A stretch of 56,783 nt of DNA, taken from IMG/VR virus record IMGVR_UViG_3300036833_000338, positions 1 through 56,783 of that record; one strand, given 5' to 3'. The translations under genes and the position numbers were made by a program. Source of the stretch: a virus. Lineage: Duplodnaviria > Caudoviricetes. Within the stretch, counting starts at the first letter, position 1. Every line of letters begins with the position of its first letter. Below are positions 2,544 to 55,771 of this stretch, in pieces. Below the pieces are notes generated by a model, which was not told the DNA's origin, did no database searches, and saw only the letters and a list, made by a program, of their open reading frames with translations.

Positions 2544-2634
2544 GGGCGACGCGATGCTTCGAACACCGTGCCGCCCTTGACACTGCCGGTCGTTAGGAGG
2601 ACCAGCGATGCCCGACGAGATCTTACCTCCGATC
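2544..2634 (+). promoter_or_regulatory. Two-hairpin leader element, family 1 copy A
   Basis: GGGCGACGCGATG-loop-CACCGTGCCGCCC, TTGACA, GGTC-GTTAGGAG-GACC, ATGCCCGA; similar to copies at 15396 and 55659. Confidence 0.7.
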
Positions 2635-3327
2635 ATCACGCGAGCCGACGCGAAAGCGCGCGGGCTCAAGCGCTATTTTACCGGGAAACCATGCAAACAT
2701 GGGCATGTCGCGGAGCGATATCTCTGTGGGTTATGTTGTAAATGTGATCGCCTGTGGCAAAAGACCTATTATCACCAAGATCCTGTCAAATATCGCGCGA
2801 TGAGCCGTGCATGGCAAATGGCTCATCCCGAATATATGCGAGAATATATCAAAGACTGGGACCAACTAAATCCTGGCCGCAGACGAGACCATCGAAATAA
2901 ATGGAAACTGGCAAACCCAGAGAAGGATATCGAGGCAAAACGTAAATCCGCGGCATTACCAAAAAGCAAAGCTCGAAGAGCGCAATATGTAGTTGATCGA
3001 CTGAAAACTGACCCACTATTTCGATTGAGCCGCGGTTTGCGGACTAGATTAGGTGCTGCGCTGCACGATGATAAAAAAGGCGGTTCCGCTATTCGTGATC
3101 TCGGCTGCACTATCGCTGAACTCAAAATCTGGCTTGAAAGCCAATTCGCTCCAGAGATGACGTGGGAAAATCGTGGCCCGGTTTGGCACGTCGACCACAA
3201 GATTCCGCTAGCGGCCTTTGATCTCACCGATCCGGTGGAGCTCAAGCAGGCGTGCCACTACACCAATCTGCAGCCGCTATTTGCCCGAGATAATCACAGG
3301 AAGGGGTCAACAAATGCCCGAAGATGA
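2608..3327 (+). CDS. Free-standing HNH homing endonuclease, antisense to the tail operon
   Basis: C-terminal MTWENRGPVWHVDHKIPLAAFDL...CHYTNLQPLFARDNHRKG; N-terminal AKARGLKRYFTGKPCKHGH Zn module; AT-richer than flanks. Confidence 0.9.
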   Translation: MPDEILPPIITRADAKARGLKRYFTGKPCKHGHVAERYLCGLCCKCDRLWQKTYYHQDPVKYRAMSRAWQMAHPEYMREYIKDWDQLNPGRRRDHRNKWKLANPEKDIEAKRKSAALPKSKARRAQYVVDRLKTDPLFRLSRGLRTRLGAALHDDKKGGSAIRDLGCTIAELKIWLESQFAPEMTWENRGPVWHVDHKIPLAAFDLTDPVELKQACHYTNLQPLFARDNHRKGSTNARR

Positions 3328-3691
3328 TGTAAGCGCCCGCCTCGCCCGGATCGAGGCGAACATCGCCACCAAAGCCGATCTCGAAGTCGCGGTGGCAACC
3401 GCAGTTGCCGGGCTGGCGACCAAAGCCGATCTCGCGCCCTTCGCCACCAAGGCCGACCTCGAGGGCGTCGCCAAGAATGTCGATATCACCAAGCTCAGTG
3501 ATGACGTGCGGCGGCTACGCGATGATGTGATCGCCCTCAAGGATGATCTTGCGGTAACCACCGCGATCGCCCAACGGCTCGATCATGTAACCAGCCGGCT
3601 GATCGTTGACGTGCTCACCGAGATCCGCGCCGAACATAGCCGCATGGATCGGCTGCTCGGCCGCGTCCGCGCCCTCGAAGGGGAGCCGTAA
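3314..3691 (+). CDS. Coiled-coil protein with ATKADL repeats (DUF1640/CCDC90-like)
   Basis: Three ATKADL repeats and heptad pattern; start taken at MPEDD. Confidence 0.65.
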   Translation: MPEDDVSARLARIEANIATKADLEVAVATAVAGLATKADLAPFATKADLEGVAKNVDITKLSDDVRRLRDDVIALKDDLAVTTAIAQRLDHVTSRLIVDVLTEIRAEHSRMDRLLGRVRALEGEP

Positions 3692-3754
3692 AAATCAAGT
3701 TTTTGGCCGGAACTCGCAAGTTTCCGAGCGTTGTGATTGCCATATTTAGTCTAC

Positions 3755-3770
3755 CGGCGCTGGAACGCCG
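3755..3770 (+). promoter_or_regulatory. Hairpin with CTGGAA loop upstream of RBS (family 3)
   Basis: CGGCG-CTGGAA-CGCCG followed by AAAGGA and ATG 3792. Confidence 0.5.
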
Positions 3771-3791
3771 CGGAACAGAAAGGACACCCCG

Positions 3792-4118
3792 ATGAACAAG
3801 ACCCTCACCGCCATCGCGCTCGCCACCGCCGTGCTCGCGAGCACTACGACAACTAGCCATGCTTTCGGGCCGCCCGCTAACGTAAAGCCCGGCGATTGCT
3901 GGCAAGACGGCTGGCAACAGGTATGCAAATACGCGCCAGGACCGGCCGCGCCGTTTGGGTACACAGGGCCGCCGCACCCTGAACCAGCGGCTCCCGCTGC
4001 GGCAGTCGCCCCGAGCGCACAGCCCCGCAATGCAGACGACGAAGCCTTTTATAAGGGAGTGGTTTGGTGTCACATAGCCTTGCACGCCAGCCTTGCTGAC
4101 TGCGCAAAGAAATATTAG
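3792..4118 (+). CDS. Exported protein with signal peptide
   Basis: MNKTLTAIALATAVLASTTTTSHA signal-like N-terminus; AAAGGA RBS. Confidence 0.7.
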   Translation: MNKTLTAIALATAVLASTTTTSHAFGPPANVKPGDCWQDGWQQVCKYAPGPAAPFGYTGPPHPEPAAPAAAVAPSAQPRNADDEAFYKGVVWCHIALHASLADCAKKY

Positions 4119-4121
4119 GCG

Positions 4122-4250
4122 ATGATGATCGCGATCGCCGGCGGCATTCTGCTGGCGCTGGCCGTTCTCGGGGTGCTCCGGCGCCTGCCGCAGATCCTCG
4201 CGATCCTCTTCGTCCTCTACCTGATTGGCAGCTGCGTCGGACCACACTAG
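4122..4250 (+). CDS. Small membrane protein (42 aa)
   Basis: MMIAIAGGILLALAVLGVLRRLPQILAILFVLYLIGSCVGPH, two hydrophobic segments; read by hand. Confidence 0.55.
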   Translation: MMIAIAGGILLALAVLGVLRRLPQILAILFVLYLIGSCVGPH

Positions 4251-4261
4251 ATAGTTGATTT

Positions 4262-5809
4262 TTATCTGTTGACGTTTATCAACACTGAGGCAAAATGCAC
4301 AGCCCCGGCGAGTTTGCAGGCCACCTGAATCAGCGGTGCTATTCTTGCTTCGCGATCTGCTTGGTCTTGGGCGTCGACCGATTGGGCAAACGAGTACCAC
4401 CCTGCGTGCAGCGTATCGCCCTGGTTGAGCTGGCCAAACCCCGGCGCGTTCCACACGCCCGGTGCGATTAATCCGTTCACCACACCCTGCGACAGGCTGA
4501 GATCGCAGGTGGTCACCAGGGTATGCACGCCGGGGTTGGTCTGCGGCACTTTCGGAGATTGATAGAGGACATTCCAGAGATCATTCTGCATGCGGTTCGA
4601 CAGCCAGTCGAGCCCGTGCATCTCGTCGAAATAGGCTGGTCCCGACATGACGCCTTCCTGGAGGATCGCGGCACCGTTGTTGTATTGGACGTAGACATTG
4701 GTGCGCTTGTTGGCGAGCGTCGTCGCCTGGGTGGCCGAAAGCAATTCGGGGAAAATCCCCGGCTCGACCTTGAACTTCATCGTGATCGTGGTGTTGCTGC
4801 CCTCGAAATTCGTGGTCAAGGCCCGGCCGAAGAAGCTGGCGATCGCGAAGCGCTGCGATGAATACTGAACCACGGTGCGCATGTAGTTGGCCAGCATCGA
4901 CAGGCTGCCGATGTCGGCGGCACTGGCGGCGTTGAGGCAGAGCGGGTCTTGCGAGGTGATCCCGTACATATGCTTGTCGGCGGCGGCCTCGATATAGCCG
5001 GAGACCGCCTGGTGCTCGGCATTGGTCAGGATGCGCGAGGCGGCGAAGGTGCAGGCGTACCAGCCGCGGCCGTCGACCCGAGCGACGCAGGCGACCGGGG
5101 TCTCAAGCGCGATGCCGGCGACGTTGCGCGAGGCCAGCGCCGCGGTCATCAGCAGGCCGCCATAGACTACCGGCGTTGTTCCCCCGGCACCTGAGATGTC
5201 GAGGCCGGCGATCGGCGCGCTCAGGTAGCTGACCGTCGAACCCGGGCCGCCTGTGGCGCTACCGCTCGTCAGCATGAATACCGGGTTGTTGATGCCGCCC
5301 CAAGTAAAGGTCGCATTTGTCGCGCCTACCCCGCCGGATGTGCGTATCGCCCCTTGGATGAGCGAGGCAACGCCGTTGAGATTGGTCTGGGTGCCGAAGT
5401 CGAGGCCGCTGACATGGAACACCGTGCCGCCGTCGAGTGTGCATGTGAACCCGCCGGTGTTGGTGCCCGTGATCGAAGTCCAGTTCGACATCAATTGCTG
5501 GGTGGCCGACAGCGGCCCGCTGACGAGCCGGCCATTGGTCGCGGTGTTCGCCCAGCGGCCGATGAAGAGGGTGCCCGGCTGCGGCACCTGGCCGAAGAAC
5601 AGCGCGGCGGCGAGGTATTCGGGCGCGGCCGTGCCGAAGTCGTTCGCCACGTCGTGGATCGAATTGTATTCTCGGATCGCCTCGCCGGTGTCGACGACCG
5701 TGCTGTCGCCGAGGATCAGCAACGTGTCGAATCGGACGGTCGGGATCGCCGCGGGCGCAAAATTGACGGTCACGTCAACGACGCGGCTGACGCTCAGACC
5801 TTGCGGCAT
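4262..5809 (-). CDS. Tail sheath protein (DUF3383-like)
   Basis: GLSVSRVVDVTVN; APEYLAAALFFGQVPQP; TITMKFKVEPGI; KLAGAVHFASVLINVNR. Confidence 0.9.
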   Translation of the reverse strand: MPQGLSVSRVVDVTVNFAPAAIPTVRFDTLLILGDSTVVDTGEAIREYNSIHDVANDFGTAAPEYLAAALFFGQVPQPGTLFIGRWANTATNGRLVSGPLSATQQLMSNWTSITGTNTGGFTCTLDGGTVFHVSGLDFGTQTNLNGVASLIQGAIRTSGGVGATNATFTWGGINNPVFMLTSGSATGGPGSTVSYLSAPIAGLDISGAGGTTPVVYGGLLMTAALASRNVAGIALETPVACVARVDGRGWYACTFAASRILTNAEHQAVSGYIEAAADKHMYGITSQDPLCLNAASAADIGSLSMLANYMRTVVQYSSQRFAIASFFGRALTTNFEGSNTTITMKFKVEPGIFPELLSATQATTLANKRTNVYVQYNNGAAILQEGVMSGPAYFDEMHGLDWLSNRMQNDLWNVLYQSPKVPQTNPGVHTLVTTCDLSLSQGVVNGLIAPGVWNAPGFGQLNQGDTLHAGWYSFAQSVDAQDQADREARIAPLIQVACKLAGAVHFASVLINVNR

Positions 5810-5895: not shown

Positions 5896-7389
5896 TCAAC
5901 TAATCACCACCGGGCCGACCTGCAGGTTATCCACGGCGCTCGGGGTCCATGGTGCACCGGTATTCGGGTCGGTGACATCGACGCGCCAGGTCCAAAACAT
6001 GGATGTCGATAGCGTCTCTGTCGGGGTTTGCACCGTGGTAGTCCCAGAAGTAAGATTCAGGCTTCCCGACCGCGGATTGAGATTGTCCGACTTGGCCATG
6101 ATGCCTCGCGTGACCACTGCGACGATCGATGGCGGCTCTACGGCAAGACCGCTAATATTATATGTATCGCTGGCACCGGCAACGCCATCGTTGACAAAAA
6201 CGGCGTTGTTATACTGCAGAGGACCAGCAATGGTGGCATTGCTGCTGGCAGTGTAGACTATCGACACAACCGGAGCCGGACCGCTGGCAACACCTACCGA
6301 GTTAAGAGGGAACACAGCGTAAGCCGTGGGACTGCTGCAGCCGGTGATACCGAAGGTGGTGGCTCCGCTGTTGATGTTCGATCCGGTCGGGCTGTCGCTG
6401 CAAAACCCAGCCCATAGTTGTGTATTTTTGCTAACTGCCACTGCTGGTGAAAAAGTAAAGCTGTTGTTTCCGGTCACCGGATTATTGATTGGCGCTGTCG
6501 CCGCAGCCAACACTGTAGTAGGTCCAGCCGCCGTGCCGCTGAACAGCGCACACCGCATATTGCCGGTATAACCTAAAGCCATCGACAAGAGCACGTTGTT
6601 TATGGTGCCGTCATACTTCGCGAGAAAGCCTACATATAAGGCGGCCGGCGGAGTCATGCTCATGGATGCAAACGCGGTGTTGAGGATATGGGTCGCTGGC
6701 GATACTCTGCTGTACTGAATGCTGACGTCAGTGGCCGGCCGTCGAGAATAGCACCGGATGTCACCAAGCCACGCCACCGAAACTGGATCGCTACGCCATA
6801 TAAAATCATCGATCAACCAGTTATTGATCTGGGCATTCTGCCCGAGGACTAGTTGATTGGCGTAATTGTTGGTCGTGCCACCGCGTGTATTGAGCCCGGT
6901 CGCCGAGAAACTATTGACTTGGGTGCCTCCCTTGCGCACGCTGAAGCTGCCACCAGTGTTGTTGATCACCACTTCAAACTCGTATAAAAACCATTCGTTA
7001 CGGAAGTTTACCGCGTTAGGATAGGTCGCCAGCACCGTGCCAGTCGGACCACCAGAAGTCAATAAAATGGCGCCGTCGCTGCGAAACACAATGGTGCATT
7101 GCGCAGTGCTTCCGTCACCCAGGGTTAAATAGCCGCCGAGCGTGGCGCCGCTCAGCCCCTGGGTCTGCATGTAAGCAATGGTGATATGGTGAATCGAGTC
7201 GTTAGCGCCGGAATTTTTGGTGAGCCAGAAACCAAGAACTGTTGACGACTGGAATGCCTGACTACCTGCAAACCTCCCAGCCACCAGAGTAGCGCACGGC
7301 GCGCCGCTGTTCATGGTGTCCCAGTAGCCGTTGGGCAAGGTTTGCACAATGTCGTACGTATCGAAGCTATCGGCGAAAAACCATGCCAT
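5896..7389 (-). CDS. Virion fibre or receptor-binding-like beta-rich protein, paralog 2
   Basis: 497 aa; shares [26 protein letters not shown] and TDPNTGAPW blocks with 7636..9165. Confidence 0.6.
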   Translation of the reverse strand: MAWFFADSFDTYDIVQTLPNGYWDTMNSGAPCATLVAGRFAGSQAFQSSTVLGFWLTKNSGANDSIHHITIAYMQTQGLSGATLGGYLTLGDGSTAQCTIVFRSDGAILLTSGGPTGTVLATYPNAVNFRNEWFLYEFEVVINNTGGSFSVRKGGTQVNSFSATGLNTRGGTTNNYANQLVLGQNAQINNWLIDDFIWRSDPVSVAWLGDIRCYSRRPATDVSIQYSRVSPATHILNTAFASMSMTPPAALYVGFLAKYDGTINNVLLSMALGYTGNMRCALFSGTAAGPTTVLAAATAPINNPVTGNNSFTFSPAVAVSKNTQLWAGFCSDSPTGSNINSGATTFGITGCSSPTAYAVFPLNSVGVASGPAPVVSIVYTASSNATIAGPLQYNNAVFVNDGVAGASDTYNISGLAVEPPSIVAVVTRGIMAKSDNLNPRSGSLNLTSGTTTVQTPTETLSTSMFWTWRVDVTDPNTGAPWTPSAVDNLQVGPVVIS

Positions 7390-7633: not shown

Positions 7634-7635
7634 CG

Positions 7636-9165
7636 CTAGCTCAGCACCACCGGGCCGATTTGCAGATTGTTGACTCCGGCCGGAGCCCACGCCGCCCCGG
7701 TTGCCGGATCTGTTGTATCGGTGCGCCACGCCCAGCCATAGACTGTGGTCAGCGCGGTGGTTGGCGTGGCAACGGTCGTGCCGGCGGATTTGAGCTGCAT
7801 GGCACCGGTGCGCGATCCGGCATCGGTCTTGCCGACAAACCCACGAGTCGTCACCGCAATGATACTAGCTGGTGTGCCGGTCATCGCCCCGAGGGTGTAA
7901 AAGTCGGCGTCGCCGGTATTGCCGTCGGTGAGATAGCTGAGCCCGCTGTTCTCGACTGCTTGGTTGACGCAATCGGCGTTGGTCGCCGGGTTGAAAGTCG
8001 CAATTACGCTGGCCTGCTGCGCGCTAGCGGAAGTCCCGGTCGGATTGGAGGTCGGCCACGAGGCATAGGCCTGAGTGGCGGACAGTCCGCCGGCAACCGC
8101 CGTGCTGCCGGCGAATATCATCGAGGCATCCTGGTTATAGCCGAACCAGTATTGAGTGCCTTTGACCAATGTCGGGGGCGATGCGAAAGTGACGGTCTGG
8201 CTGGTCAGAGGCAAAGGATTGAGAATCTCGCTCGATGTTGCCAGCAAAGCTCCGGGAGCTCCGGCAGCGTCGCTGTAGATCGCGCACTTGACATGCCCAG
8301 TGCCGCCTCCGGTGGTGACGTTGAAGCTGACTGTGGCGCTGCCGAGAGTGCCGTTGAAGCCAGCATTGAACGGGAAGTAACTAGGTGCGCCAGCGGCTTT
8401 GGCCGTCAATGCGGTGGTGCCGCTGACGGCGTTCTGAGCCGCAGTCGATCTGGTAAACAACGCTTGGACATCACTGGCGGGGGAGCGAACATAGCAACGT
8501 ATGTCACCAAGCCACGGCGGGGCCGTCACATCGCTGCGCCACAGGAAATCGTCGAACTGGCAGCTGGAGACTGTCTGCGCCTGGAACATTAACAAGCGAT
8601 TGGCGTAGCTGTTGGCCGTGCCGCCACGCGTGGCGAGCCCGGTGATGGGTCCGAAGGTGTTGGTGCTGCTGCCGTTCAGACGGGCAGTAAAGCTGCCTGC
8701 GGTCGGATGGATGACCACCTCGAATTCAAATGCGTACCATGTATTGGCCACTGCGATCGGATTGCTCCCGCCGTTGGTGCCTGGTGTCCCCCAGGTCGCC
8801 AGGACCGTTCCCGTGGTGGCGCCGACGGGCATTCCCGAGGTTAGCAGGATCGTCCCGTCGCTGCGAAACACGATGCTGCACTGCGCGGTGGCGCCGTCCT
8901 GCAATGTCAGGACGTTCGCGTTGCGCACGCCGGTGGTGACCAATGCTGCGGTCTGGCGGTAGGCACAGATGATGTGGTGCACCGGGTCGTTGGACCCGCT
9001 CGCCTTGGCCAAATACAGCGTATTGGAGCCGGCGAGGCTGAGCGCCTGGCCAGCAAAACGGCCAGGCACCAAGGTGGCCGTGAAGCCGGTATCCCAGTAA
9101 CCGGAATAAGCGTCGGCGCCCGTCGCGTACAGATCGAAACCATCACCAAATATGTAAGCCATCAT
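7636..9165 (-). CDS. Virion fibre or receptor-binding-like beta-rich protein, paralog 1
   Basis: 509 aa, G/T/A-rich, paralogous to 5896..7389, within the structural operon. Confidence 0.6.
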
Positions 9166-13264: not shown

Positions 13265-13547
13265 CGATCACCCAAAGATCGCCAAAGTCGCCAAAGTCGC
13301 CAGAGTCCTCGTTCATCTTGGTAAGGCGATGTTTGTAGCCGTCCTTCGTGATCCAGCCGGCTTGTTCCAACTCTTCGATGGTCACCCGGCCAATGTTTGG
13401 CAGAGCGGCGATCCAATACACATCGCCGTCGCGGCAACCATCACCCCAGCCCTCTCCGCCATAAGTTGGGTCGGGATCGCCGCGCATGAGCCTCAATACC
13501 GCCGTAGCGCGACCACTGAGCTTGGCGGCCATCAGCCCCATACCCAC
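13257..13547 (-). CDS. Hypothetical protein
   Basis: 96-aa ORF filling the gap between neck genes. Confidence 0.45.
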   Translation of the reverse strand: MGMGLMAAKLSGRATAVLRLMRGDPDPTYGGEGWGDGCRDGDVYWIAALPNIGRVTIEELEQAGWITKDGYKHRLTKMNEDSGDFGDFGDLWVIDA

Positions 13548-14041
13548 ACGATGCTATTCAGCAGATTTCCAGTGTCAATTAATGGAGTCGTGTCTGCGGA
13601 TGTAGTTGCTTTGCGTCGATATTTGCTTCCTGGAGTTCGAACTCGCCTTCTCGCTACTGTCTCTTCTTTGAGCGGAGGAGGTATTCCAGCAGCGATCGTC
13701 CGTTTCACGCTGTTGACGGCGATCTGCCCGGCCTCGCCCAAGTGCCGCCGCATCAGCAGGGGCTCGCCGCCAAGCGCATCGCGGGCCGCCTGCTCGAGCT
13801 TCTTGACCCAGCGATCCTTGGATTTCGTGACGCCAGGAAAAAGAAAAGGTCTGCTTGGAATATTTCGGGCTGGCGAGCCAAATTCATGAATATACCCAAG
13901 ACTAGCGTTTCCGATAGGACTTCCACTTCTTGGGTTATTCTCCTGTGGAATACCAACAAGTACTTTATTAGTTCCAATAGCTTTGAGTGCTTCCGAAATT
14001 TTCTTCAAATTATCGACGGTGACTTCAACCCCGCTTTGCAT
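13532..14041 (-). CDS. Neck / tail completion (virion morphogenesis) protein
   Basis: VLVGIP...NASLGYIHEFGSPARNIPSRPFL...PLIDTGNLLNSI. Confidence 0.85.
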   Translation of the reverse strand: MQSGVEVTVDNLKKISEALKAIGTNKVLVGIPQENNPRSGSPIGNASLGYIHEFGSPARNIPSRPFLFPGVTKSKDRWVKKLEQAARDALGGEPLLMRRHLGEAGQIAVNSVKRTIAAGIPPPLKEETVARRRVRTPGSKYRRKATTSADTTPLIDTGNLLNSIVWVWG

Positions 14042-14760
14042 ACGGCCCATTCCTCCATGGTTCTAGTGCCTTTGGTGCTGTTACAACTCTGACAAAGCAA
14101 TTGAAAGTTCTCCGTCGCATTGGTGCCGCCGCGACTAAGAGGGATCTTATGATCCAGCGTGTATTTCTCTGAAATATCACACCCGCACCCAAGACACCGA
14201 CCATCTTGGTCTTGTTGCATGCGCGCGACATCGTCGAGGGTCAAAGCGAGCTTCCCACCCACTACTTCCCGCTGCCGACGGTTCGTTTTAGCGCGCAAAC
14301 GATGAATGCGCACCGCTTCCGGATGATCAACCACCCACTGGACGAGCAACTGTTTAACATGCTCGGCATTCTCGGTTCGCCAGACTTTTAGATACGCACT
14401 TATTTGTTCCGCATGCTTCAACTGGTGACGACGTTTGCGAGCTTTCAATTTCGCCGGATCGTGATTGATCCTTCGTCTTTGTTGACGCTTAATTTCCGGG
14501 TCTTTCGCTGCCTGCCGTTGCCGATCGCGTTCTTGATACGCTGGTCGCTTCTTCCAAGAATTGACCTTTTGACGGTTAGCCTTCATCCAAGCGTGTCGCT
14601 GAATGCGAGCACATTCGAAGCATCGATTATTGCTCGTGAGCCTCTGTGAGATATGTCCGTACGCACACGGCGTACCCAGGAAAAACCGCTTGAGTCCCGC
14701 AGCCTTCGCCTCGGCGCGCGTGACAATCGGGCCTTGATATGGAACGTAGCCGGTAGCCAT
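14005..14760 (-). CDS. Free-standing HNH endonuclease
   Basis: CLGCG...TLDHKIPLSRGGTNATENFQLLCQSCNSTKG; N-terminal AKAAGLKRFFLGTPCAYGH; start MATGY after AGGAG. Confidence 0.9.
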   Translation of the reverse strand: MATGYVPYQGPIVTRAEAKAAGLKRFFLGTPCAYGHISQRLTSNNRCFECARIQRHAWMKANRQKVNSWKKRPAYQERDRQRQAAKDPEIKRQQRRRINHDPAKLKARKRRHQLKHAEQISAYLKVWRTENAEHVKQLLVQWVVDHPEAVRIHRLRAKTNRRQREVVGGKLALTLDDVARMQQDQDGRCLGCGCDISEKYTLDHKIPLSRGGTNATENFQLLCQSCNSTKGTRTMEEWAVCKAGLKSPSII

Positions 14761-14836
14761 CGGAGGTGCTCCTACACCTGTGGTGGTCAGGGCCGGCGTG
14801 GCGTTGACCCGCCGCGTCGGCTCGCTCAACATTATA
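14758..14836 (-). promoter_or_regulatory. TATAAT box plus two-hairpin leader, family 1 copy D
   Basis: Minus strand: TATAAT, GAGCCGACGCGGCG-loop-CGCCACGCCGGCCC, TGACC, AGGTG-TAGGAG-CACCT, ATG. Confidence 0.6.
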
Positions 14837-14863
14837 CGCGCACTTCACGAATATCAGCCCCGT

Positions 14864-15121
14864 TCAGTGCACGCGTCGCCGGGGGATCCGGGTCTCGCGC
14901 CGGATGGTCCGGTTCGCCATCGCGGTGTCGATCGCGCTCGTCACCGGGTCGGCGTCGAGCACTTCCTGAAGCTGCCGGGCGACCTCAGTGTGCAAGTCGT
15001 ACGTTTCGGCATCGTCGGGCGACGCCTCGGCCACCGCAGTGTGGTAGGCGATGATGTTTTCCAGTCGCGCACGCATTGCCGATTGCATTTCAGCCTCCGT
15101 TGGAAAAGAGCGGAGCGGCAT
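14864..15121 (-). CDS. Hypothetical protein
   Basis: 85-aa ORF co-oriented with neighbours. Confidence 0.5.
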   Translation of the reverse strand: MPLRSFPTEAEMQSAMRARLENIIAYHTAVAEASPDDAETYDLHTEVARQLQEVLDADPVTSAIDTAMANRTIRRETRIPRRRVH

Positions 15122-15155
15122 GGCTACTCGCCGCTCCAGTTTGGGAGGAACCTTG

Positions 15156-15365
15156 TCAGGATTTGTAGATCAGCGCGCGCACAGCGCAGTCTTTCGCCTC
15201 GACTAGCTTGCGCAGCGCTGTCGTCCTTTCGGGATTGCGGGGCAGCGTCTCGACGATCTCGTGGGCGAGCTCGGAGAATGCCTTGCTCGTCGGCTGCAGG
15301 TCTTCGCGCAGATGGTCCCAGACGAAAAACTGCAGCATCGGCTCGCGCTCGGGATGGTCCGCCAT
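15156..15365 (-). CDS. Small helical-hairpin phage protein, possibly Acb2/Tad1-like
   Basis: LQFFVWDHL...LPRNPERTTALRKLVEAKDCAVRA; GAGGAG RBS. Confidence 0.55.
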   Translation of the reverse strand: MADHPEREPMLQFFVWDHLREDLQPTSKAFSELAHEIVETLPRNPERTTALRKLVEAKDCAVRALIYKS

Positions 15366-15395
15366 CGCAGGCTCCTCGCAAGTGTGATATAAAGC

Positions 15396-15523
15396 GGGCG
15401 ACGTGGTGTTGAGGCACCGCGCCGCCCTTGACACCCGTCGACCACTGGAGGGTCAGACAGATGCCCGATGAAATCTTACCACCGATTCGCGGACGCACCT
15501 TGCAGGAGGTGTCATGGGCGTAA
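15396..15523 (+). promoter_or_regulatory. Two-hairpin leader, family 1 copy B, with 20-codon leader ORF (15461-15523)
   Basis: Same layout as 2544; ORF MPDEILPPIRGRTLQEVSWA overlaps the next start; TGATATAAA just upstream. Confidence 0.7.
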
Positions 15524-15915
15524 CTCTCGTCGGACAGATCGGCACGATTTATTTTGTCGCGTGTAAAGAACGCTATGTAAAGATAGGGTTTGTGTGGCGC
15601 CGCAGCGTCTCAAAAAGAATAGATGATATGCAAGGCGAAAACCCGTTTCAGTTAAAGCTCATCCGAATTATAACGCCGGCCTACATGGAACAAGAGAGAT
15701 GGCTACATCAGCATTTCGAACATTTAAAGGCGTCGACCCCCGCAGGAGAGTGGTTCTGTTTTTCTGATGAAATGCTTACAATAAACCCGCCCGACAGCGA
15801 AACTTGCCTGGCTAACAAGGCCGCTCTTGAAAAACAGCTAAAATTGCGACGCGCCAGGATGGCGTATGCGCGGGCACATCCGGTCCGCCAATGGCGCACC
15901 CCCCTCAAAGTGTAA
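15514..15915 (+). CDS. GIY-YIG-superfamily (T5orf172-like) protein
   Basis: IYFV...YVKIGF...RIDDMQGENPFQLKL...ERWLHQHF...GEWF. Confidence 0.85.
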   Translation: MGVTLVGQIGTIYFVACKERYVKIGFVWRRSVSKRIDDMQGENPFQLKLIRIITPAYMEQERWLHQHFEHLKASTPAGEWFCFSDEMLTINPPDSETCLANKAALEKQLKLRRARMAYARAHPVRQWRTPLKV

Positions 15916-15929
15916 AGAGCGGGTTTTTC

Positions 15930-16028
15930 AGTGTAAACTTTTCTTACACTTTTTCGGGTTTTTGCCGCTCAGCCAGCGGATGGGAAATCAGCAATATCAG
16001 CCGCTTAATCGTTTGGCACGCTTCTTCT
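15930..16028 (+). promoter_or_regulatory. Palindromic enhancer-like site and sigma54-like promoter
   Basis: AGTGTAA-N7-TTACACT (15930-15950) and TGGCACG-CTTC-TTCT (16014-16028; -12 box deviates from TTGC). Confidence 0.55.
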
Positions 16029-16049
16029 ATATAACTCATCGGAGCGCTC

Positions 16050-16763
16050 ATGCTCCCTAAGGAGATGGAGAAACCCATGTCGAAAACACTTTTTGCCGCC
16101 ACCGCCGCCCTCCTGGCCGCGGCCGCCCTCTCTGGCTCAGCCTCGGCCGGCGTCCTGAACTGCTCGATCCTGGTCGACGGCATCAGCGTCGGCAGCTGCG
16201 TCACCTCGAGCACCGGGACGACCTCGTTCAATAGCGCCACGGCCTCGCCGCTGTTCTCGGCGATCAACCTCACCGCCGATGGCCCGCCGGTCCTGCCAAA
16301 CCCGGATCTGTCGAGCGTCACGCTCAACGTCTCCTCGGCGGCTGGATTCACCGGCACCCACATCCTGACCGTCGATGTCTTTCAGACCGGTGTAAGCGCC
16401 CCGATCGGGACGACATTGCAAACCACTGCGACGATCAATAACCTGATTGGGATCGCCGGCCCGACGACGCTCTCAGATGCGTTCAACGGGACTGCGTCGA
16501 CCTTGGGCACGACGTTGCGCAGCAACACCTTCCCCGCGACCTTCACCGGCGCGATCGGCCCGTTCCTTGATGTCCTCACCGTGCCGCTGACGGCCGATGC
16601 CGAGCAGTACCAGATCACCTTCACCGCGCCCAACCAATCGGCCAACGACACGATTCAACTTCAAGGTGTGACACCATCGGTCTCCGAACCCTCCTCGATG
16701 GCCTTGTTCGCCGGCGCGCTGCTCGCCATGGGCTGGTGGTATCGCCGCCGCCGCAATAGCTGA
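16050..16763 (+). CDS. PEP-CTERM sorting-domain surface protein (moron)
   Basis: Signal peptide; C-terminal VSEPSSMALFAGALLAMGWWYRRRRNS (PEP-like motif, TM helix, basic tail); start may be 16077. Confidence 0.85.
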   Translation: MLPKEMEKPMSKTLFAATAALLAAAALSGSASAGVLNCSILVDGISVGSCVTSSTGTTSFNSATASPLFSAINLTADGPPVLPNPDLSSVTLNVSSAAGFTGTHILTVDVFQTGVSAPIGTTLQTTATINNLIGIAGPTTLSDAFNGTASTLGTTLRSNTFPATFTGAIGPFLDVLTVPLTADAEQYQITFTAPNQSANDTIQLQGVTPSVSEPSSMALFAGALLAMGWWYRRRRNS

Positions 16764-16779
16764 ACAACATAGCGACCTG

Positions 16780-16814
16780 GAGCCGTCAGAGAAATCTGGC
16801 GGCTCTTTTCTTTT
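16780..16814 (+). terminator. Intrinsic terminator
   Basis: GAGCCGTCAGA-GAAA-TCTGGCGGCTC followed by TTTTCTTTT. Confidence 0.8.
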
Positions 16815-17019
16815 ACTCGCGCGGCGGCGGAGCGTCCCGATACACCTCTGTGTGCTGCTCGTCCTCGGTCGGGACAAACCCGCGGCCCGCGGCGGTGATC
16901 GCGAATTTGAGCCGGCGCAACAGCTCGGCGCCGCGCTCCGGGCTCGGGATCGCGCCGCGCACGATCAGTTCGAGATGACCGACCAAGTCCGCGCACAACT
17001 CCTCGGGGATCATGATCAT
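16813..17019 (-). CDS. Hypothetical protein
   Basis: MIMIPEELCADL... directly after the DUF4054 stop. Confidence 0.45.
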   Translation of the reverse strand: MIMIPEELCADLVGHLELIVRGAIPSPERGAELLRRLKFAITAAGRGFVPTEDEQHTEVYRDAPPPRE

Positions 17020-17020
17020 C

Positions 17021-17530
17021 TTAAGCACGATACGGCAATGCGGTGCCGTAGGAATAGTATTTCTGCCCCGAAACCCCGGTGAACGGGCGATAGCGGAACA
17101 TCCGGTATTGGGCGGTTCCCGCCCAATAGGCAAAACCGTATTTCGACTGGATGAACCAAGCTGCAGTGCCGGGAACATTTGGCAACTGATAACCGATGCT
17201 GACCGGGCCAACGCTTTTGTTGTTGATCATCCCGACCTGCTGCCCGGAGCCCGGTCCGGTCAGGTAGGCCATGTGCGCGGTCAGCATGTACAAGAGGCGC
17301 TCGCGCTCGCCGCCGACCGAGGCGTCGCACACCGGGCTATTGCAGGTGTTGTCGAGGTACATCGTCGCATCGTAGAACAGTTCCTGTGCCGTCGCCGCCT
17401 GCAGGTTATAGGGCGGATTGGAAAATTCCGGATAGCGCGCCGCAAAGCGGGGCGGATCGAACACCACCACGCACGGGTCGACCGGCGGTACCGGAACCAA
17501 CGGTGGGCATGGTGTGCAGGTGTCGCTCAT
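17021..17530 (-). CDS. Head-to-tail connector (DUF4054-like)
   Basis: FAARYPEFS...LLYMLTAHMAYL...AWFIQSKYGFAYW. Confidence 0.85.
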   Translation of the reverse strand: MSDTCTPCPPLVPVPPVDPCVVVFDPPRFAARYPEFSNPPYNLQAATAQELFYDATMYLDNTCNSPVCDASVGGERERLLYMLTAHMAYLTGPGSGQQVGMINNKSVGPVSIGYQLPNVPGTAAWFIQSKYGFAYWAGTAQYRMFRYRPFTGVSGQKYYSYGTALPYRA

Positions 17531-17586
17531 CGGGGAATCCCCTTCAAACGCGCGGCGTGCCGTCGGCGGTGCGGAGCAACATCATG

Positions 17587-17778
17587 TTACTCCACATCGC
17601 GCAATCGCGCAGCCGGCGCAGCACGTAACTCGGTCAGCACCAGAACCGCCTTGGCGGCCTTGCGGGTGAGGTGCCCTTTGTTGTGGCGCTGCCCGTGTTG
17701 GTCCTTGTAGGCGCAGACCCAGCGCACGCGCTCGCGGCCATCCTGGCCCTGCCAGGATCTCTTGTACACGCTCGCCAT
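17587..17778 (-). pseudogene. Isolated integrase N-terminal (arm-binding-like) fragment
   Basis: MASVYKRSW...VRWVCAYKDQHGQRHNKGHLTRKAAKA with no catalytic domain. Confidence 0.5.
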
Positions 17779-17779
17779 G

Positions 17780-18052
17780 TCAGGACCGCCGATCTTCGAG
17801 GCGCGCGACGCGCTCGGCCAGTTGCTGGACATAGCCGGCGAGAGCGATGCCCGCCTGTGCCATGCCCTGCTGCAGGCCGGCGAGAAACCGTACGTCGTCG
17901 TCGAGACGGCGGACGACGGCGAGGGTATCGGAGACCCGCTCGTTCAGCTTGGTGATCTCGCTCTCGATCTTGTCGAGATGCGTCGTGGTGGCGAGGGTCG
18001 GCAGCGCCGCCTCGATTGCTGCCAGCCGTTGTTCTAGATTTTCGTCAGCCAT
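17780..18052 (-). CDS. Small coiled-coil protein
   Basis: LEQRLAAIEAAL...LAERVARLE; resembles 3314..3691; AAAGGA RBS. Confidence 0.65.
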   Translation of the reverse strand: MADENLEQRLAAIEAALPTLATTTHLDKIESEITKLNERVSDTLAVVRRLDDDVRFLAGLQQGMAQAGIALAGYVQQLAERVARLEDRRS

Positions 18053-18141
18053 TGTCGTGGTCCTTTCACGAGGGTGGTCAGAGGTGCCGCTCCGTCTTAC
18101 ACACGGGCGGCGCCTCGCTCTTCACGAGCACACCGAATATA
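18050..18141 (-). promoter_or_regulatory. Two-hairpin leader, family 1 copy E
   Basis: Minus strand: TATATT, GAGGCGCCGCCCGT-loop-ACGGAGCGGCACCTC, TGACC, TCGTG-AAAGGAC-CACGA, ATG. Confidence 0.55.
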
Positions 18142-18175
18142 CGCGCAAAGTGGCTCGGACGCTTGCTGAATCGCG

Positions 18176-18355
18176 TCAGACTTTGCTTCGGCGTGAAGCA
18201 AACTTCCGGGAGGGGTAAGTCTTGTCCGGCCCTTCGGGCAGCATGCTGTCGAGGTATTCGGCGAAGTCGGCAAAGTGCGAGCGAATGTCGGCGATTTGCG
18301 CCAACTGGTTCTCGGTCGGCTGCAGGTATTCGAAAGTCGAATGATGCAAGCTCAT
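18176..18355 (-). pseudogene. Acb2/Tad1-like hairpin protein, apparently truncated at the C-terminus (59 aa)
   Basis: MSLHHSTFEYLQPTENQLAQIADIRSHFADFAEYLDSMLPEGPDKTY...; ATGA-coupled to the upstream gene; read by hand. Confidence 0.45.
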
Positions 18356-36564: not shown

Positions 36565-36894
36565 ATGACGCCAGTTGAACTGCGCGACCGGCGGCTGGCT
36601 CTCGGCTGGTCGCAAGAGGAGGCGGCCGAGCGGCTCGGCGTCGGCCTGCGAACTTTTAAATACATGGAGGCTGGCGGTGACGTGCGCCGCGAGGCCACGC
36701 GGATCGACCCGGTCCCGAAGACGGTGGCGCTGGCGATGCTCGCGTATCGCTTTGCTCAGCATGTCGAAGTCGCCAAGCACGAGCTTGGGCATGACCTCAT
36801 AGCGCTCGGTGACGAGATCGAACATCTCGCCCGCGACTTCGCCGCAGAGATCCAGCCTTCGCAGCCGCTTCGGCGGAGTAGGCTCAGCCGATGA
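36565..36894 (+). CDS. XRE/Cro-like HTH regulator
   Basis: MTPVELRDRRLALGWSQEEAAERLGVGLRTFKYMEAG. Confidence 0.8.
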   Translation: MTPVELRDRRLALGWSQEEAAERLGVGLRTFKYMEAGGDVRREATRIDPVPKTVALAMLAYRFAQHVEVAKHELGHDLIALGDEIEHLARDFAAEIQPSQPLRRSRLSR

Positions 36895-37694: not shown

Positions 37695-37727
37695 CCCGGT
37701 GACAAAAAGGGAACCTCAAATACGTTA

Positions 37728-37979
37728 CTGCGCGACCGGCGGCTGGCTCTCGGCTGGACGCAAGAGGAAGCGGCCGCCCGACTCGGGATCGGCCTGCGAA
37801 CTTTTAAGTATTACGAAGCCGGCGGTGACGTGCGCCGCGAGGCCACGCGGGTCGATCCGGTCCCCAAGACGGTGGCGCTGGCGATGCTCGCCTACGCCTT
37901 TCTCCGCGACGCGGCGCACGAAGCGGCGCTCGAGGTGCCCGTGAAGAACTTGGCCGATGAGGATGCCGACCGAGGCTGA
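37728..37979 (+). pseudogene. 5'-truncated second copy of the XRE gene
   Basis: About 165 bp highly similar to 36579-36745; LRDRRLALGWTQEEAAARLGIGLRTFKYYEAG with no start codon after the in-frame TGA at 37692. Confidence 0.75.
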
Positions 37980-53943: not shown

Positions 53944-54167
53944 ACCCGGAGTCGACAGGGCGGTGGAAGCCGCCGCGCAAGGAGCAACTGTTGCACGAGA
54001 TCGCGACCGGCGCACTGACCCGTGCCGAGGCGCTCGAGCAATATGGCCTCAGCGCCGACGAGCTCGCCGAGTGGCAAAAAGCCTACGACGCGCACGGGCT
54101 CCCCGGACTCCGCAGCACCCGGAGTCAAATGTATCGCGGCCACCCCGCGCCGCGCTTCACCCGATGA
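53940..54167 (+). CDS. sciP: SciP-like (DUF1153) CtrA-inhibitor homolog
   Basis: RWKPPRKEQLLHEIATGALTRAEALEQYGLSADELAEWQKAYDAHGLPGLRSTRSQMYR. Confidence 0.8.
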   Translation: MNPESTGRWKPPRKEQLLHEIATGALTRAEALEQYGLSADELAEWQKAYDAHGLPGLRSTRSQMYRGHPAPRFTR

Positions 54168-54367
54168 CGACGCCGGAGCATTTTGCGATGACCTTTGACG
54201 TAACGATGCGGTTTTACGTGAGGTACAGCGATCGGCGCTATCGCCCTGACGACGCTGTCGCCGATGTTTTTGAGTGGGGTGAATGCGTCAGCGAAAGCGA
54301 GGCGCGAGCGACTTTCCTTCTGGCGCACCCGCACGCCTACATCGTCCGTGAAGAGCGCATCGAATGA
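54164..54367 (+). CDS. Hypothetical protein
   Basis: ATGA-coupled on both sides. Confidence 0.45.
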   Translation: MTTPEHFAMTFDVTMRFYVRYSDRRYRPDDAVADVFEWGECVSESEARATFLLAHPHAYIVREERIE

Positions 54368-54849
54368 CGCTCCACGACTATCTCGAGGCAAACGTCGCCT
54401 GGCTCGAGGAGGCGGTCAAAAGCGTGGCGGCCGGCAGCGATCTGATGCCGATGTATGTCTTCGAAACGGCGGACGCGACCGTAGTTGTGCCGCCGATCAT
54501 CCACGACAAGGACCTGATGGTCGCGGTGTTCGAGGGACTGGCAAAGAAAGCCGGCGCGGTGCGCTACGCCATCATCTCGGCCGCCTGGTACGTCAAGCTC
54601 GCACCACACGAGGCAACCACGGGGACGGCGATCATCGGCCGAGAGGGCACCGGCACCATCTACAAGGACCGCCGCCGCGAGTGTTACGAGGTCGTCGTCG
54701 GCGACAAGGAGCAGACGCTGATCGCGACATTTGATGTGCAACGCGACTACAAGGACAAAATCCGGCAGCTGATCCGGCTGCCCGCACTCGAACCGCAGGC
54801 GTTTTCCCACGGGCGCATGATCGACCTGCTTGTCGAGGCTCGACACTGA
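54364..54849 (+). CDS. Hypothetical protein
   Basis: 161 aa, GC3-rich codons, followed by a hairpin. Confidence 0.65.
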   Translation: MTLHDYLEANVAWLEEAVKSVAAGSDLMPMYVFETADATVVVPPIIHDKDLMVAVFEGLAKKAGAVRYAIISAAWYVKLAPHEATTGTAIIGREGTGTIYKDRRRECYEVVVGDKEQTLIATFDVQRDYKDKIRQLIRLPALEPQAFSHGRMIDLLVEARH

Positions 54850-54866
54850 GATGTTTCCCGTGAAAC

Positions 54867-54898
54867 ACCCGGCGGCTGCTCCCCCACAGCCGCCGGGT
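54867..54898. terminator. GC-rich hairpin between convergent genes
   Basis: ACCCGGCGGCTG-8 nt-CAGCCGCCGGGT; no clear U-tract on the plus strand. Confidence 0.5.
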
Positions 54899-54990
54899 CG
54901 GGCCTCACTCCTTCTGTCGCCGCCTGCGCAACAGCCGCCGTCGCTCACGCCCGCTGATGCTCGGCGGTTCCGGCTTTTCTCCTGAGTCAG

Positions 54991-55578
54991 CTAAGGGCGC
55001 GGTGCGGCCGATGGTGTTGGCGTGCCGGGGTGAGACTTTGACGGCACAATGGCCATCGCCCAGCCGCCTGTGGGGGTCCAATATGCGATTACGTCCCATC
55101 TCTCCATGATTTCCGGTGGCTTGGGCGGGCTGCCATCAGTCGGTGGATCTGGAAGTATTATTGGGTGGACAGGAAGCGGCGGCCAAATAGTTGTTGGTGG
55201 CGGCACAATAATTGGATGTTCAGGTTTGGCATTTGGCGGCCACACATCAACATCGGGCGGGACCACGATCGGATGACTAGGCCCGCCACCGGGCGAAATT
55301 GGATGTTCAGGCCGTCCTGGACTTGGCCAGATACCTACCGGCGGCATCGGTGGACTTGGAATTACAATGGGGTGACTTGGGCTGACAGGAAATCCCGGCG
55401 GAATCACGATCGGAAACGTTGGAAAGCCTGGGCCTTGTGATGGGCCGCCGCCTGGCGAAATGGGGTGGGCCGGGTGCCCGGGAGAAGGCCAGATCCCCGG
55501 CGGCGGCCCGGCGATCGGGTGTTCTGGTGTGCCGCCAGTCTGCAACGGCACGATGTAGGCGAGGATCGGATCTGGCAT
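54991..55578 (-). CDS. Proline-rich repeat protein
   Basis: Repeated PxHPI and (I/V)WP units; AAAGGAG RBS. Confidence 0.7.
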   Translation of the reverse strand: MPDPILAYIVPLQTGGTPEHPIAGPPPGIWPSPGHPAHPISPGGGPSQGPGFPTFPIVIPPGFPVSPSHPIVIPSPPMPPVGIWPSPGRPEHPISPGGGPSHPIVVPPDVDVWPPNAKPEHPIIVPPPTTIWPPLPVHPIILPDPPTDGSPPKPPEIMERWDVIAYWTPTGGWAMAIVPSKSHPGTPTPSAAPRP

Positions 55579-55658
55579 GCGTAAGCGCTCCTTTTCGAGG
55601 ATTGGGATTTTGCCGAAAATCCTGTAGACCCAATTAAACCACAGGATTATTACATATC

Positions 55659-55771
55659 GGGTGACGCGGTGTTCGACGCACCGCGCCGCCCTTGACAGGA
55701 CCGATCGTACAGGGGATCAGCCCATGCCCGACACGACCTTATCCCAAACTCCCGGCGAGCTGGTTCATTAA
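55659..55771 (+). promoter_or_regulatory. Two-hairpin leader, family 1 copy C, with 15-codon leader ORF (55724-55771)
   Basis: GGGTGACGCGGTG-loop-CACCGCGCCGCCC, TTGACA, GATC-GTACAGGG-GATC, ATGCCCGAC. Confidence 0.7.

Follow-up and report, generated by a model that had tools for sequence, protein, structure and literature searches.

The virus record IMGVR_UViG_3300036833_000338 (Duplodnaviria; Caudoviricetes), a stretch of 56,783 bases whose whole length is called the window here, raises the question of how accessory genes dispersed over a phage genome, in places antisense to the late operon, can be started and expressed. At five sites of the window a short leader with two hairpins stands in front of such genes, and we consider it probable that these leaders are self-contained gene-start cassettes for independently expressed phage accessory genes, very often free-standing homing endonucleases.

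The five leaders, designated c1 to c5, were all read and folded, and the layout that a preliminary description of this DNA had ascribed to five sites was borne out in each: an A/T-rich box, a GC hairpin of 30-36 nucleotides (nt; hairpin 1), a (T)TGAC(A/C) stretch that forms the linker, a stem of 4-6 base pairs (bp; stem 2) with the Shine-Dalgarno sequence (SD) in its loop, and an ATG. Folded singly, hairpin 1 has 5 or 4 bp, next a one-by-one mismatch (A.C or C.A), which had been noted earlier and is present in all five, and then 7-9 bp, and the (T)TGAC(A/C) stretch is unpaired in these folds. On the + strand, c1 (2536..2610) has the box TATGAA at 2536-2541, hairpin 1 with an A.C mismatch at 2544-2576, TTGACA at 2577-2582, the stem 2 GGTC/GACC with the SD in its loop, and the ATG at 2608; c2 (15385..15463) has an extended -10 sequence, TGATATAAA, at 15385-15393, hairpin 1 at 15396-15427, TTGACA, the stem 2 GACC/GGTC and the ATG at 15461; and c3 (55651..55726) has the box TACATA at 55651-55656, hairpin 1 at 55659-55691, TTGACA, the stem 2 GATC/GATC and the ATG at 55724. 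These three are of the form called type A below, and c1 is 75-76% identical to c2 and c3 over about 85-100 nt, from the A/T box to 18-26 nt inside the open reading frame (ORF). The other two, of type B, lie on the - strand: c4 (14758..14839) with GCGTATAAT at 14839-14831, hairpin 1 with A.C and C.A mismatches at 14821-14792, CTGACCACC, the stem 2 AGGTG/CACCT and the ATG at 14760, and c5 (18050..18144) with GCGTATATT at 18144-18136, hairpin 1 with a C.A mismatch and a bulged A at 18116-18081, CTGACCACC, the stem 2 TCGTG/CACGA and the ATG at 18052. They have GCGTATAWT, CTGACCACC and ATGGCT in common, and their hairpins differ. All five stem 2 pairings are those that had been given earlier.

Do the five belong together? 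The motif CCYYTGACM occurs nine times in the window against 2.55 expected, a number reached in 0 of 100 shuffles, and a descriptor scan of the window returned the five leaders and 3 intragenic matches, where 5 shuffles gave 0-3. The z-scores of the single-sequence folds are modest (from -1.1 in c1 and c4 to -3.7 in c5), so that folding energy alone proves little in GC-rich DNA. Two covariance models carry the relationship further. Model R1 was seeded with c1, c3, c4 and L030, a member from outside the window, which match it by construction (84.8 bits for c1, 79.4 bits for c3); on sites not used as seeds it gave 53.4 bits for c2 and 15.4 bits (E 0.044) for c5, the best unrelated match being at 14.9 bits. 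Model R2 was built from 10 sequences, all from other contigs and all of type B, and in the window, searched with filters off, it found c4 at 43.2 bits (E 3.2e-10), c5 at 33.7 bits (1.6e-7) and c1 at 29.6 bits (2.4e-6); c2 reached 12.2 bits only (E 0.22), and c3 was not recovered on the sense strand. Jointly, R1 and R2 tie all five sites into one family. Neither model found a sixth copy in the window, and weak extra R1 matches in G001-G008, which on reading have no linker and no SD, were dropped. Not every endonuclease here uses the cassette, since a third HNH paralog of the window (21881-22633, + strand; 76% identity to the c1 gene over 93 nt) has a different leader (21800-21880), with only one hairpin, of 10 bp, the 3' arm of which adjoins the SD.

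The same layout was found before unrelated genes in at least 30 viral contigs, and the window, its complete relative G005 and the viral contigs, with GC contents of 38-74%, together hold 54 members with 49 distinct hairpin 1 sequences. The outside members were obtained by exact-pattern scans of viral contigs and then filtered for an abutting hairpin. The pattern CTGACCACC-N14-30-ATGGCTGAC gave 105 matches, 47 of them without an abutting hairpin and 58 with a hairpin of at least 9 bp ending at most 3 nt from the linker; among these 58, 41 fold at -15 kcal/mol or better, 17 with weaker hairpins were left out, and the 34 non-identical sequences form a 34-row set, in which L460 (tape measure gene), L515 and L467 were kept and may still be due to chance. 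In the other scans, about 9 of 69 stretches (5 distinct), 1 of 28, 4 of 118 and about 10 of 80 matches examined were real. Type A, with the linker CCCUUGACAC and the start AUGCCC (MP..), comprises c1-c3, G5a, L058 (=L094), L093, L030, L011 and L054, and further L031, L334, L343, L340, L341 and L376; type B, with the linker CUGACCACC and the start AUGGCU(GAC) (MA(D)..), comprises c4, c5, G5b, L169, L218, L273 and the pattern-scan set. That R2, with its type B seeds, also recovers the type A members c1, G5a, L093 and L058 at 30-34 bits makes the two types one family, and its three matches in L443 and two in L442 indicate that other phages, too, are multi-copy.

Within this family, hairpin 1 has a stem of 9-17 bp (median 13) and a loop of 3-11 nt, and stem 2 follows after 8-15 nt. 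Hairpin 1 opens with G and closes with C in 47 of the 49, 21 of the loops end in AA, 11 of the hairpins have a GGYG/CRCC top stem, and 16 of the 18 one-by-one mismatches are A.C or C.A. Both the linker (CUGACCACC or CCCUUGACAC) and the opening codons (MAD.., MPD..) show sequence conservation, which is partly built in because members were found via the linker and/or the start motif. For several of the stretches fetched, no protein similarity to the window was detectable, and the SD and ATG follow in all 20 members of the first set that have a start. Six members of high GC content (L428, L518, L520, L492, L464 and L493; 70-74% GC) have the SD GGAG paired with CUCC in stem 2, and their cargo is a DUF2637 membrane protein; with its SD sequestered and not displayed, this set is possibly a functionally different subgroup.

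Covariation is strong in both stems when tested on the members of the family. Full covariation of stem 2 had been claimed from the five copies alone, and it generalises: 41 of the 49 members form a stem 2 whose loop contains an SD-like triplet, where shuffles give 10.7 (at most 17 in 300), and 34 distinct innermost stems are involved. As for hairpin 1, 91.5% of the cells pair in an alignment of 41 R2 matches, whose rows were fitted to the model, against 63.2% in shuffles (0 of 500 as high); double-sided changes occupy 108 cells against 32.3 (0 of 500), and 10 of the 11 pairs covary, the basal pairs included. When the partner is moved by 1-3 columns, pairing is only 37-52%. In a MAFFT alignment of the 14 type A leaders, 87.8% of the cells pair, with double changes at 6 pairs, in one sequence each (0 of 500 shuffles). 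The same is seen in the folding energies, since the native hairpins fold at a mean of -19.7 kcal/mol and arm-swapped chimeras at -12.5 kcal/mol, or, in type B alone, at -19.5 and -8.1 kcal/mol, respectively.

The genes that the leaders carry are of several origins. Behind c1 lies an HNH-type endonuclease gene (2608..3327, + strand; N-terminus MPDEILPPI; phrog_1035 6e-14, phrog_1081 1.6e-16, no Pfam match), followed by a coiled-coil gene, ORF2 (MPEDDVSARLARIE..; 3314..3691, +; 42% identity to ORF2 of G005), an ORF resembling a secreted protein (3792-4118, +) and a small membrane ORF (4122-4250, +). Behind c4 there is a second HNH endonuclease gene (14005..14760, -; PF01844, 1.8e-11), and the two are paralogs (29% identity, E 7e-15); the earlier statement that the downstream genes are unrelated thus fails for this pair. 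Behind c2 stands a 20-codon ORF, MPDEILPPIRGRTLQEVSWA (15461..15523, +), whose first 9 codons are those of the c1 HNH gene and which is therefore a remnant of an HNH start; it overlaps the beginning of a gene previously taken for a GIY-YIG nuclease, which instead carries a T5orf172/MUG113 domain (15514..15915, +; PF13455, 2.9e-6). Behind c3, a 15-codon ORF, MPDTTLSQTPGELVH (55724..55771, +), is followed by an ORF with a weak ParB-N-like motif (55788-56273, +; E 0.002 over 18 residues; phrog_21315). Neither the T5orf172 gene nor the ParB-like gene is, then, directly behind its leader, as had been supposed, and the remnant ORFs of 20 and 15 codons intervene. The 90-aa coiled-coil gene behind c5 (MADENLEQRLAAIE..; 17780..18052, -) belongs to the ORF2 family, with 39% identity to the G005 ORF2 (1.7e-9) and a weak direct match to ORF2 of the window (E 0.009). 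Among the 32 cargo proteins scanned with Pfam or PHROGs, 12 are nucleases of the homing-endonuclease type and of several unrelated folds (HNH/HNH_5, HNH_3+AP2, GIY-YIG+NUMOD3, His-Me finger, T5orf172); the other cargo includes a tyrosine integrase, a helicase, RadC, Bro-N, DUF2637 membrane proteins and a ClpX-zinc-finger fusion, and the remainder are many small ORFs without family. The small coiled-coil family recurs as cargo, being present in c5, the window ORF2, G5a, L058, L340, L521, L443 and L442.

The leaders also mark the places where close relatives differ. The c1 island (2479..4261, + strand), with its leader, HNH gene, ORF2 and the two further ORFs, lies antisense between the sheath and tube genes; it is absent from L091, whose sheath is 92% identical and whose sheath-tube gap measures about 110 nt, against 1.8 kb of + strand genes in the window. 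In G005, the island and its leader are kept, the HNH gene is absent, and the coiled-coil ORF2 follows the leader directly. The window has its HNH gene between the leader and ORF2, and upstream of ORF2 there is a stretch, AGGAAGGGGTCAACAA-ATGCCCGA, that resembles the 3' half of a second leader. The slot behind the equivalent leader is thus occupied by an HNH gene in the window, a coiled-coil ORF in G005, a 71-aa ORF in L093, where an HNH gene lies just upstream and ends in the A/T box of the leader, and a coiled-coil-ClpX-zinc-finger ORF in L058. All four genes begin with MPD(E/Q)xL, the first 4-6 codons being kept, which places the graft point a few codons inside the ORF, and with four genes in four relatives behind one leader the idea of a recombination handle, put forward earlier, gains comparative support. 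The c2 island (15119..16815), closed by a + strand terminator at 16779-16806, is absent from G005, and so are the c4 leader and its HNH gene (about 13991-14857), at whose place the flanking late genes abut. Beside this HNH gene, the 5' end of the tail-completion gene (13901-14041, -) is AT-rich and heavily recoded at synonymous sites with respect to G005, and from its sequence it looks like a co-conversion or target-immunity tract, as expected beside a homing endonuclease. The leader islands fall in the lowest-GC bins of the window. With at least 30 contigs, 12 nucleases in 32 cargo proteins, and islands that are present in one genome and absent from the next, the portability of the element and its link to mobile and accessory genes are well supported.

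In a separate observation at the c1 site, the window, G005 and L091 all have, on the late strand and just before the tube gene, a GC hairpin followed by UUCUGC (2505-2523; 6465-6510 in L091). This hairpin is probably the native attenuator between sheath and tube, and the + strand island is inserted between it and the sheath stop.

What would such an element do? Read from 5' to 3' as a gene-start cassette, it consists of (i) the A/T-rich box, which in many members reads as a sigma-70-type -10 element, in part extended by TGn; (ii) 2-10 nt further on, the G...C-closed hairpin of 9-17 bp with its A-containing defect; (iii) the sequence-conserved linker CUGACCACC or CCCUUGACAC, presumably single-stranded; (iv) a mini-hairpin of 4-7 bp that displays the SD in its loop; and (v) the ATG with two to five conserved codons (MAD.. 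or MPD(E/Q)xL..). The box would fire transcription at the foot of hairpin 1, so that the mRNA would begin with a stable stem-loop that shields its end and insulates the ribosome site from upstream sequence. In other words, the cassette's own transcripts would start within the foot of the hairpin and carry its upper stem at their 5' end, while transcripts crossing the cassette would form the full hairpin, which would act as an insulator or attenuator and on the opposite strand is followed by a U-rich tail; stem 2 would keep the SD exposed, and the repeated conserved unit would offer homology for swapping the gene behind it. Because the unit would carry all that a gene start needs, a grafted gene could be expressed in any context, including antisense in the late operon, as with c1 and c2.

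The islands of c1 and c2, set between divergent or late genes and antisense to all their neighbours, need a promoter of their own, within about 30-130 nt. An extended -10 was taken to be TGn together with a hexamer that has A at position 2 and matches at 4 or more of its 6 positions; 13 of the 51 non-identical members have one, where shuffles give 1.71 (0 of 2000). A -10 matching at 5 or more of 6 positions is found in 16 of the 51, where shuffles give 5.57 (0 of 2000); in 12 of the 13 extended cases the hexamer ends 2-6 nt before the hairpin. The region around the SD is slightly more open than that of 31 other genes in the window (0.51 vs 0.39, p 0.026).

Several findings weigh against this reading, or at least against its simplest form. 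The start codon is no more open than in the controls (p 0.33). A +1 at the usual distance from the -10 would lie 1-5 nt into the 5' arm of the hairpin, although the basal pairs covary, and a predicted start inside a covarying stem means that the full hairpin must matter outside the cassette's own mRNA. No convincing -35 was found in the members, the best match being 4/6 and most being 1-3; extended -10 promoters are usually without an evident -35. As many as 38 of the 51 members lack the extended -10, and the boxes of the c1 group (c1, G5a, L058, L093) are poor (TATGAA, CATAAA, ATGAAT). The box is A-rich and not A/T-balanced (about 49% A vs 14% T at -3 to -10); on the opposite strand, 21 of the 51 members have a U-tail that satisfies the terminator rule (at least 5 U in 8); and of the 11 members folded, 10 have the stabler hairpin in antisense, because A.C becomes G.U. 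A plain stabiliser, moreover, does not explain the linker, the first codons, the A.C/C.A defects and the loops ending in AA. Shuffles fold as well as the leader in 29 of 200 cases for c1 and 26 of 200 for c4, the 41 rows were aligned by the model itself, and the exact patterns that brought in all the outside members contained the linker and/or the start motif. Finally, with the stretch 13900-18300 as query, no RNA run was listed for the phage.

Elements of a comparable kind have been described. Against Rfam 15, the whole window gave no match at gathering score; the best permissive matches over the leaders, on the opposite strand, were ncr1175 at 22.0 bits (gathering 60) and BjrC80 at 17.4 bits (gathering 80). 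A full-text literature search for the linker 9-mer together with phage returned only primers and unrelated papers among the matches listed, and a search on homing-endonuclease stem-loop or promoter repeats in phages found only one relevant body of work, that on the promoter-early stem-loops (PeSLs), mobile regulatory cassettes known from the hyperplastic regions of T4-type phages of gammaproteobacteria (Arbiol et al., 2010, PMC2839356; Comeau et al., 2014, PMC4122927). As far as the passages seen of these papers go, PeSLs and the present cassette are alike in being dispersed intergenic repeats of about 100 bp with a sigma-70-type promoter (a putative one in the cassette), a stem-loop, an SD and the start codon of the next gene; in heading accessory or ORFan genes and marking indels in close relatives; and in having been proposed to bear their own expression signals and to shuffle genes by recombination. 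They differ in that PeSLs have a full -35/-10, with the stem-loop between the two or over the -10, whereas in the cassette no -35 is seen and the hairpin lies 2-10 nt after the -10; the cassette thus joins a stem-loop to a putative promoter, before an SD and start, with another position of the hairpin relative to the -10. PeSLs have no second, SD-displaying hairpin, no conserved linker and no conserved first codons, all three of which the cassette has, and those passages do not report an enrichment of homing endonucleases such as is seen in the cassette. PeSLs belong to T4-like phages, and the cassette is found in non-T4 myoviruses and other contigs of 38-74% GC, the phage of the window not being T4-like. 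For PeSLs, promoter, terminator and mini-circle activities were shown by experiment; for the cassette, the islands and the swapping of genes in the slot are comparative hints of such activities.

The start-associated sequences (SAS) and extended SAS (ESAS) of Cluster K mycobacteriophages are, with the PeSLs, the closest known kinds. Their function is given as unknown, with translation initiation or factor binding proposed (Pope et al., 2011, PMC3203893). SAS is a 13-nt sequence, GGG-ATAGGAG-CCC, in which a 3-bp complement flanks an SD and which lies 3-7 nt from the start codon, mostly ATG, and ESAS are imperfect inverted repeats (17 bp, spacer 4-13) directly upstream of SAS; in the part of the paper seen, the two stand in the larger intergenic gaps, oriented one way, before genes that belong to different families (PMC3203893). 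The architecture of inverted repeat, SD unit and start is nearly identical to that of the cassette on this account, and here, too, an inverted repeat stands directly upstream of the SD unit; its arms, however, are not conserved in sequence, since the cassette stems differ and covary, whereas the ESAS arms are described as conserved within the genome. The available text mentions no linker of the CUGACCACC type, no conserved first codons and no -10 box, unlike the cassette, and ESAS/SAS are described as confined to one phage cluster, the cassette spanning very different phages. The SAS 13-mer, GGGATAGGAGCCC, shows no enrichment in the window (21 matches with 3 mismatches or fewer vs 18.8 expected), and at leader-associated gene starts it matches only in c4 (14766-14778) and at 55772-55784, upstream of the 55788 start.

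By their sequences, then, the leaders are members neither of the PeSLs nor of ESAS/SAS; they are of the same kind, but differ in architecture, are spread far more widely and are markedly linked to homing endonucleases. The earlier interpretation is thus supported in part: it stands where it called the element portable and tied to mobile and accessory genes, the regulatory role that it gave the hairpins is a putative one, and the idea is not without precedent. Hairpins of homing endonuclease genes themselves offer another comparison: Gibb and Edgell are said to have found that in the T4 family such genes (I-TevI, mobE) have their own promoter and a hairpin linked to the ribosome-binding site that controls translation. 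These hairpins sequester the SD, whereas the cassette holds it in a loop in 41 of 49 members and only a few high-GC members pair GGAG with CUCC; nor are they known to form a family across nuclease types and phage groups, unlike the cassette. The mRNA stabilisers of the ompA leader type, in turn, place a stable hairpin at or near the transcript 5' end. The -10 geometry of the cassette predicts just such a 5'-terminal hairpin; ompA-type leaders are single-gene elements, not known to have a conserved linker or to form a dispersed family.

The alternatives have to be judged against the same body of data. It is extremely improbable that the leaders are chance likenesses of ordinary intergenic hairpins, or were co-inherited with paralogous HNH genes. 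GC-rich DNA does fold readily, as the z-scores of c1 and c4 recall, c1-c3 are plain sequence repeats, and two of the cargo genes are paralogs; but the independent model R2 recovers c4, c5 and c1, the layout recurs with differing stems before unrelated genes in unrelated contigs, and the third HNH paralog has another leader, so that this explanation is already contradicted by the R2 matches, the covariation and the stem 2 counts. More can be said for an operator, hairpin 1 and the linker being bound by a trans-acting protein or RNA that would co-regulate the translation or stability of all cassette-headed genes and keep the endonucleases tightly controlled; the binder would come from the host, as a conserved factor, or from the phage, where the recurrent small coiled-coil protein is a possible candidate. 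Such a trans-acting reader is the main rival, or an addition, to the simple cassette model, and we regard it as a tentative possibility. The conserved linker and first codons, the defects that are almost always A.C, C.A or bulged A, the loops ending in AA and the shared top stem suggest it, as do the G-to-C closure of nearly all the hairpins, the recurrence of CUGACCACC and of the start AUGGCUGAC in contigs of 38-74% GC that have no detectable protein similarity to the window, and the coiled-coil family among the cargo; the same possibility was raised for ESAS/SAS, in the part of that paper seen, by its authors (PMC3203893). No candidate binder was identified, the basal stem varies freely and leaves only part of the hairpin to be read, the conservation of the linker is partly imposed by the member search, and a reading of the members found no partner for it in the loops, the start region or the SD; the spread over very different phages argues, furthermore, against a phage-specific factor.

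Two other explanations turn on the opposite strand and on the DNA itself. We think it rather unlikely that the element is chiefly a backward-facing intrinsic terminator or insulator that halts transcription running antisense through the cargo gene, with the promoter-like box secondary, an idea close to the composite promoter-terminator of the PeSLs. On the opposite strand the hairpin is fully paired, A.C becoming G.U, and is followed by the U-rich complement of the A-rich box; the compositional bias, the U-tails (at least 4 U in 8 in 36 of 51 members) and the stabler antisense hairpins noted above are what it would produce, the AT-rich members L218 and L273 are textbook terminators in antisense, and it would account for basal pairs that covary although the predicted sense start lies among them. 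Yet antisense to c1 and c2 is the late operon, and the tail tube gene and the 70-aa gene 15156-15366 would be cut off, which makes an efficient backward terminator unlikely there. The true terminators of the window have clear T-runs and the tails of the five leaders are weak, with 2-5 U in 8; the TGn enrichment would be meaningless for a terminator, and the fixed linkage to the linker, stem 2 and ATG would be unexplained. That the leader and first codons form a recombination or homing site, a landing pad recognised by free-standing homing endonucleases or used by them as a homology arm, with the hairpins incidental or acting at the DNA level, seems unlikely. The HNH gene of the window is bounded precisely by the leader on one side and, on the other, by a repeat of the leader's 3' half with ATGCCCGA, that of L093 lies just upstream of the equivalent leader, c2 keeps 9 codons of an HNH gene replaced by another nuclease-type gene, and the gene start beside the c4 HNH is recoded and AT-rich with respect to G005; the one-by-one defects are transitions about as frequent as G.U pairs (16 A.C/C.A against 17 G.U), as would be expected if the RNA of one strand is not the sole target of selection. 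Against it, at least five unrelated nuclease families share the leader, which a single recognition site would hardly allow, 20 of the 32 scanned cargo proteins are not nucleases, and the fixed SD/ATG spacing and covarying stems point to a function at the level of RNA or expression. A more daring and equally unlikely variant is a mobile gene socket common to many lineages, where a trans-factor or the endonucleases would read the linker, loop and first codons, and genes would plug in in-frame: copies in unrelated phages of 38-74% GC would make up a shared landing-pad network for at least five nuclease families and accessory genes, and the hairpin would double as a cap-like protector of the RNA 5' end on one strand and a transcription stop on the other. 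A composite element, such as experiments have shown the PeSLs to be, appears the most economical reading of all these data.

Simpler roles for single parts of the leader were tried and rejected. TTGACA is not a sigma-70 -35, as no -10 lies 16-18 nt downstream, the SD follows only 8-13 nt on, and G5a has TAGACA and L093 TTTGAAC in its place. A pseudoknot of the linker with the loop of hairpin 1 can be drawn only in c4, and pairing of the linker with the start region or SD does not exceed 3 bp. An ORF for a leader peptide across hairpin 1 is present only in c1, and CUUUGA, as for an RF2-like frameshift site or UGA stop in the linker, only in L093. A tRNA-like minihelix with CCA would have the wrong spacing. 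On the sense strand, what comes after the hairpin is CUGACCACC or CUUGACAC, containing 1-2 U, and a terminator scan did not include the leaders among its results, which discards an intrinsic terminator in that direction. Finally, no RYYYAAC/GTTRRRY cores were seen on reading the flanks, as integron attC or IS200/IS605-type sites would have, and no such integrase or Y1 transposase was found among the annotated neighbours.

If the gene-start cassette is what it appears to be, a widespread and uncatalogued cis-element would explain how selfish endonuclease genes and other accessory genes are expressed wherever they have landed, even antisense in a late operon, why it is always the same few spots at which near-identical phages differ, and how genes could be swapped while the start signals stay put. 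It would extend the idea of mobile regulatory cassettes beyond the T4-like phages and one mycobacteriophage cluster, to a family in which covariation is measurable; annotators would gain a marker of gene starts and of newly acquired genes, and synthetic biology a compact, naturally occurring module for insulation and gene start. In addition, the conservation of the linker and first codons points to an interaction partner worth finding.

The genome in which the five copies lie (about 62% GC, estimated as 82% complete) is that of a phage with a contractile tail, a myovirus with a Mu-type portal (PF06381) and RecT and ParB genes. On the - strand are the genes of the tail assembly chaperone (1520-1996), the tail tube-like protein (2005-2478), the tail sheath (4262-5809), the tail completion protein (13532-14041) and the major head protein (18824-19927), as well as an ORF of 1803 aa with the portal at its N-terminus (25726-31137; weak Hint_2 match, 23.4 bits vs the curated cut-off of 28.4) and the terminase large subunit with an intein (31142-33346; Hint_2 above cut-off and an Intein_splicing match); at the right end, the + strand carries RecT and a ParB-DUF5131 fusion. 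No tRNA genes were found in the window. A phage isolate collection gave no DNA match either to a leader or to an 8-kb structural block of the window, and L218 matched there in its HNH ORF only. Several repeats are present: a direct repeat of 175 nt (36579-36753 and 37727-37901; 88% identity, 1.1 kb apart), several common repeats of 45-65 nt, with 74-80% identity, in the adjoining genes of about 500 aa at 5896-7389 and 7636-9165 (-), and internal repeats about 600-730 nt apart in the 983-aa gene 9162-12113 (-), these three genes looking like duplicated tail-fibre-like modules. As to the origin of the phage, a soil metagenome DNA run contains 96% of the words sampled from the stretch 13900-18300, and the strong + strand terminator at 16748-16814 has a sub-threshold Rfam match to the Bradyrhizobiaceae sRNA BjrC68 (22.7 bits vs 39), which, together with the GC content and the soil source, gives a faint hint at the host group.

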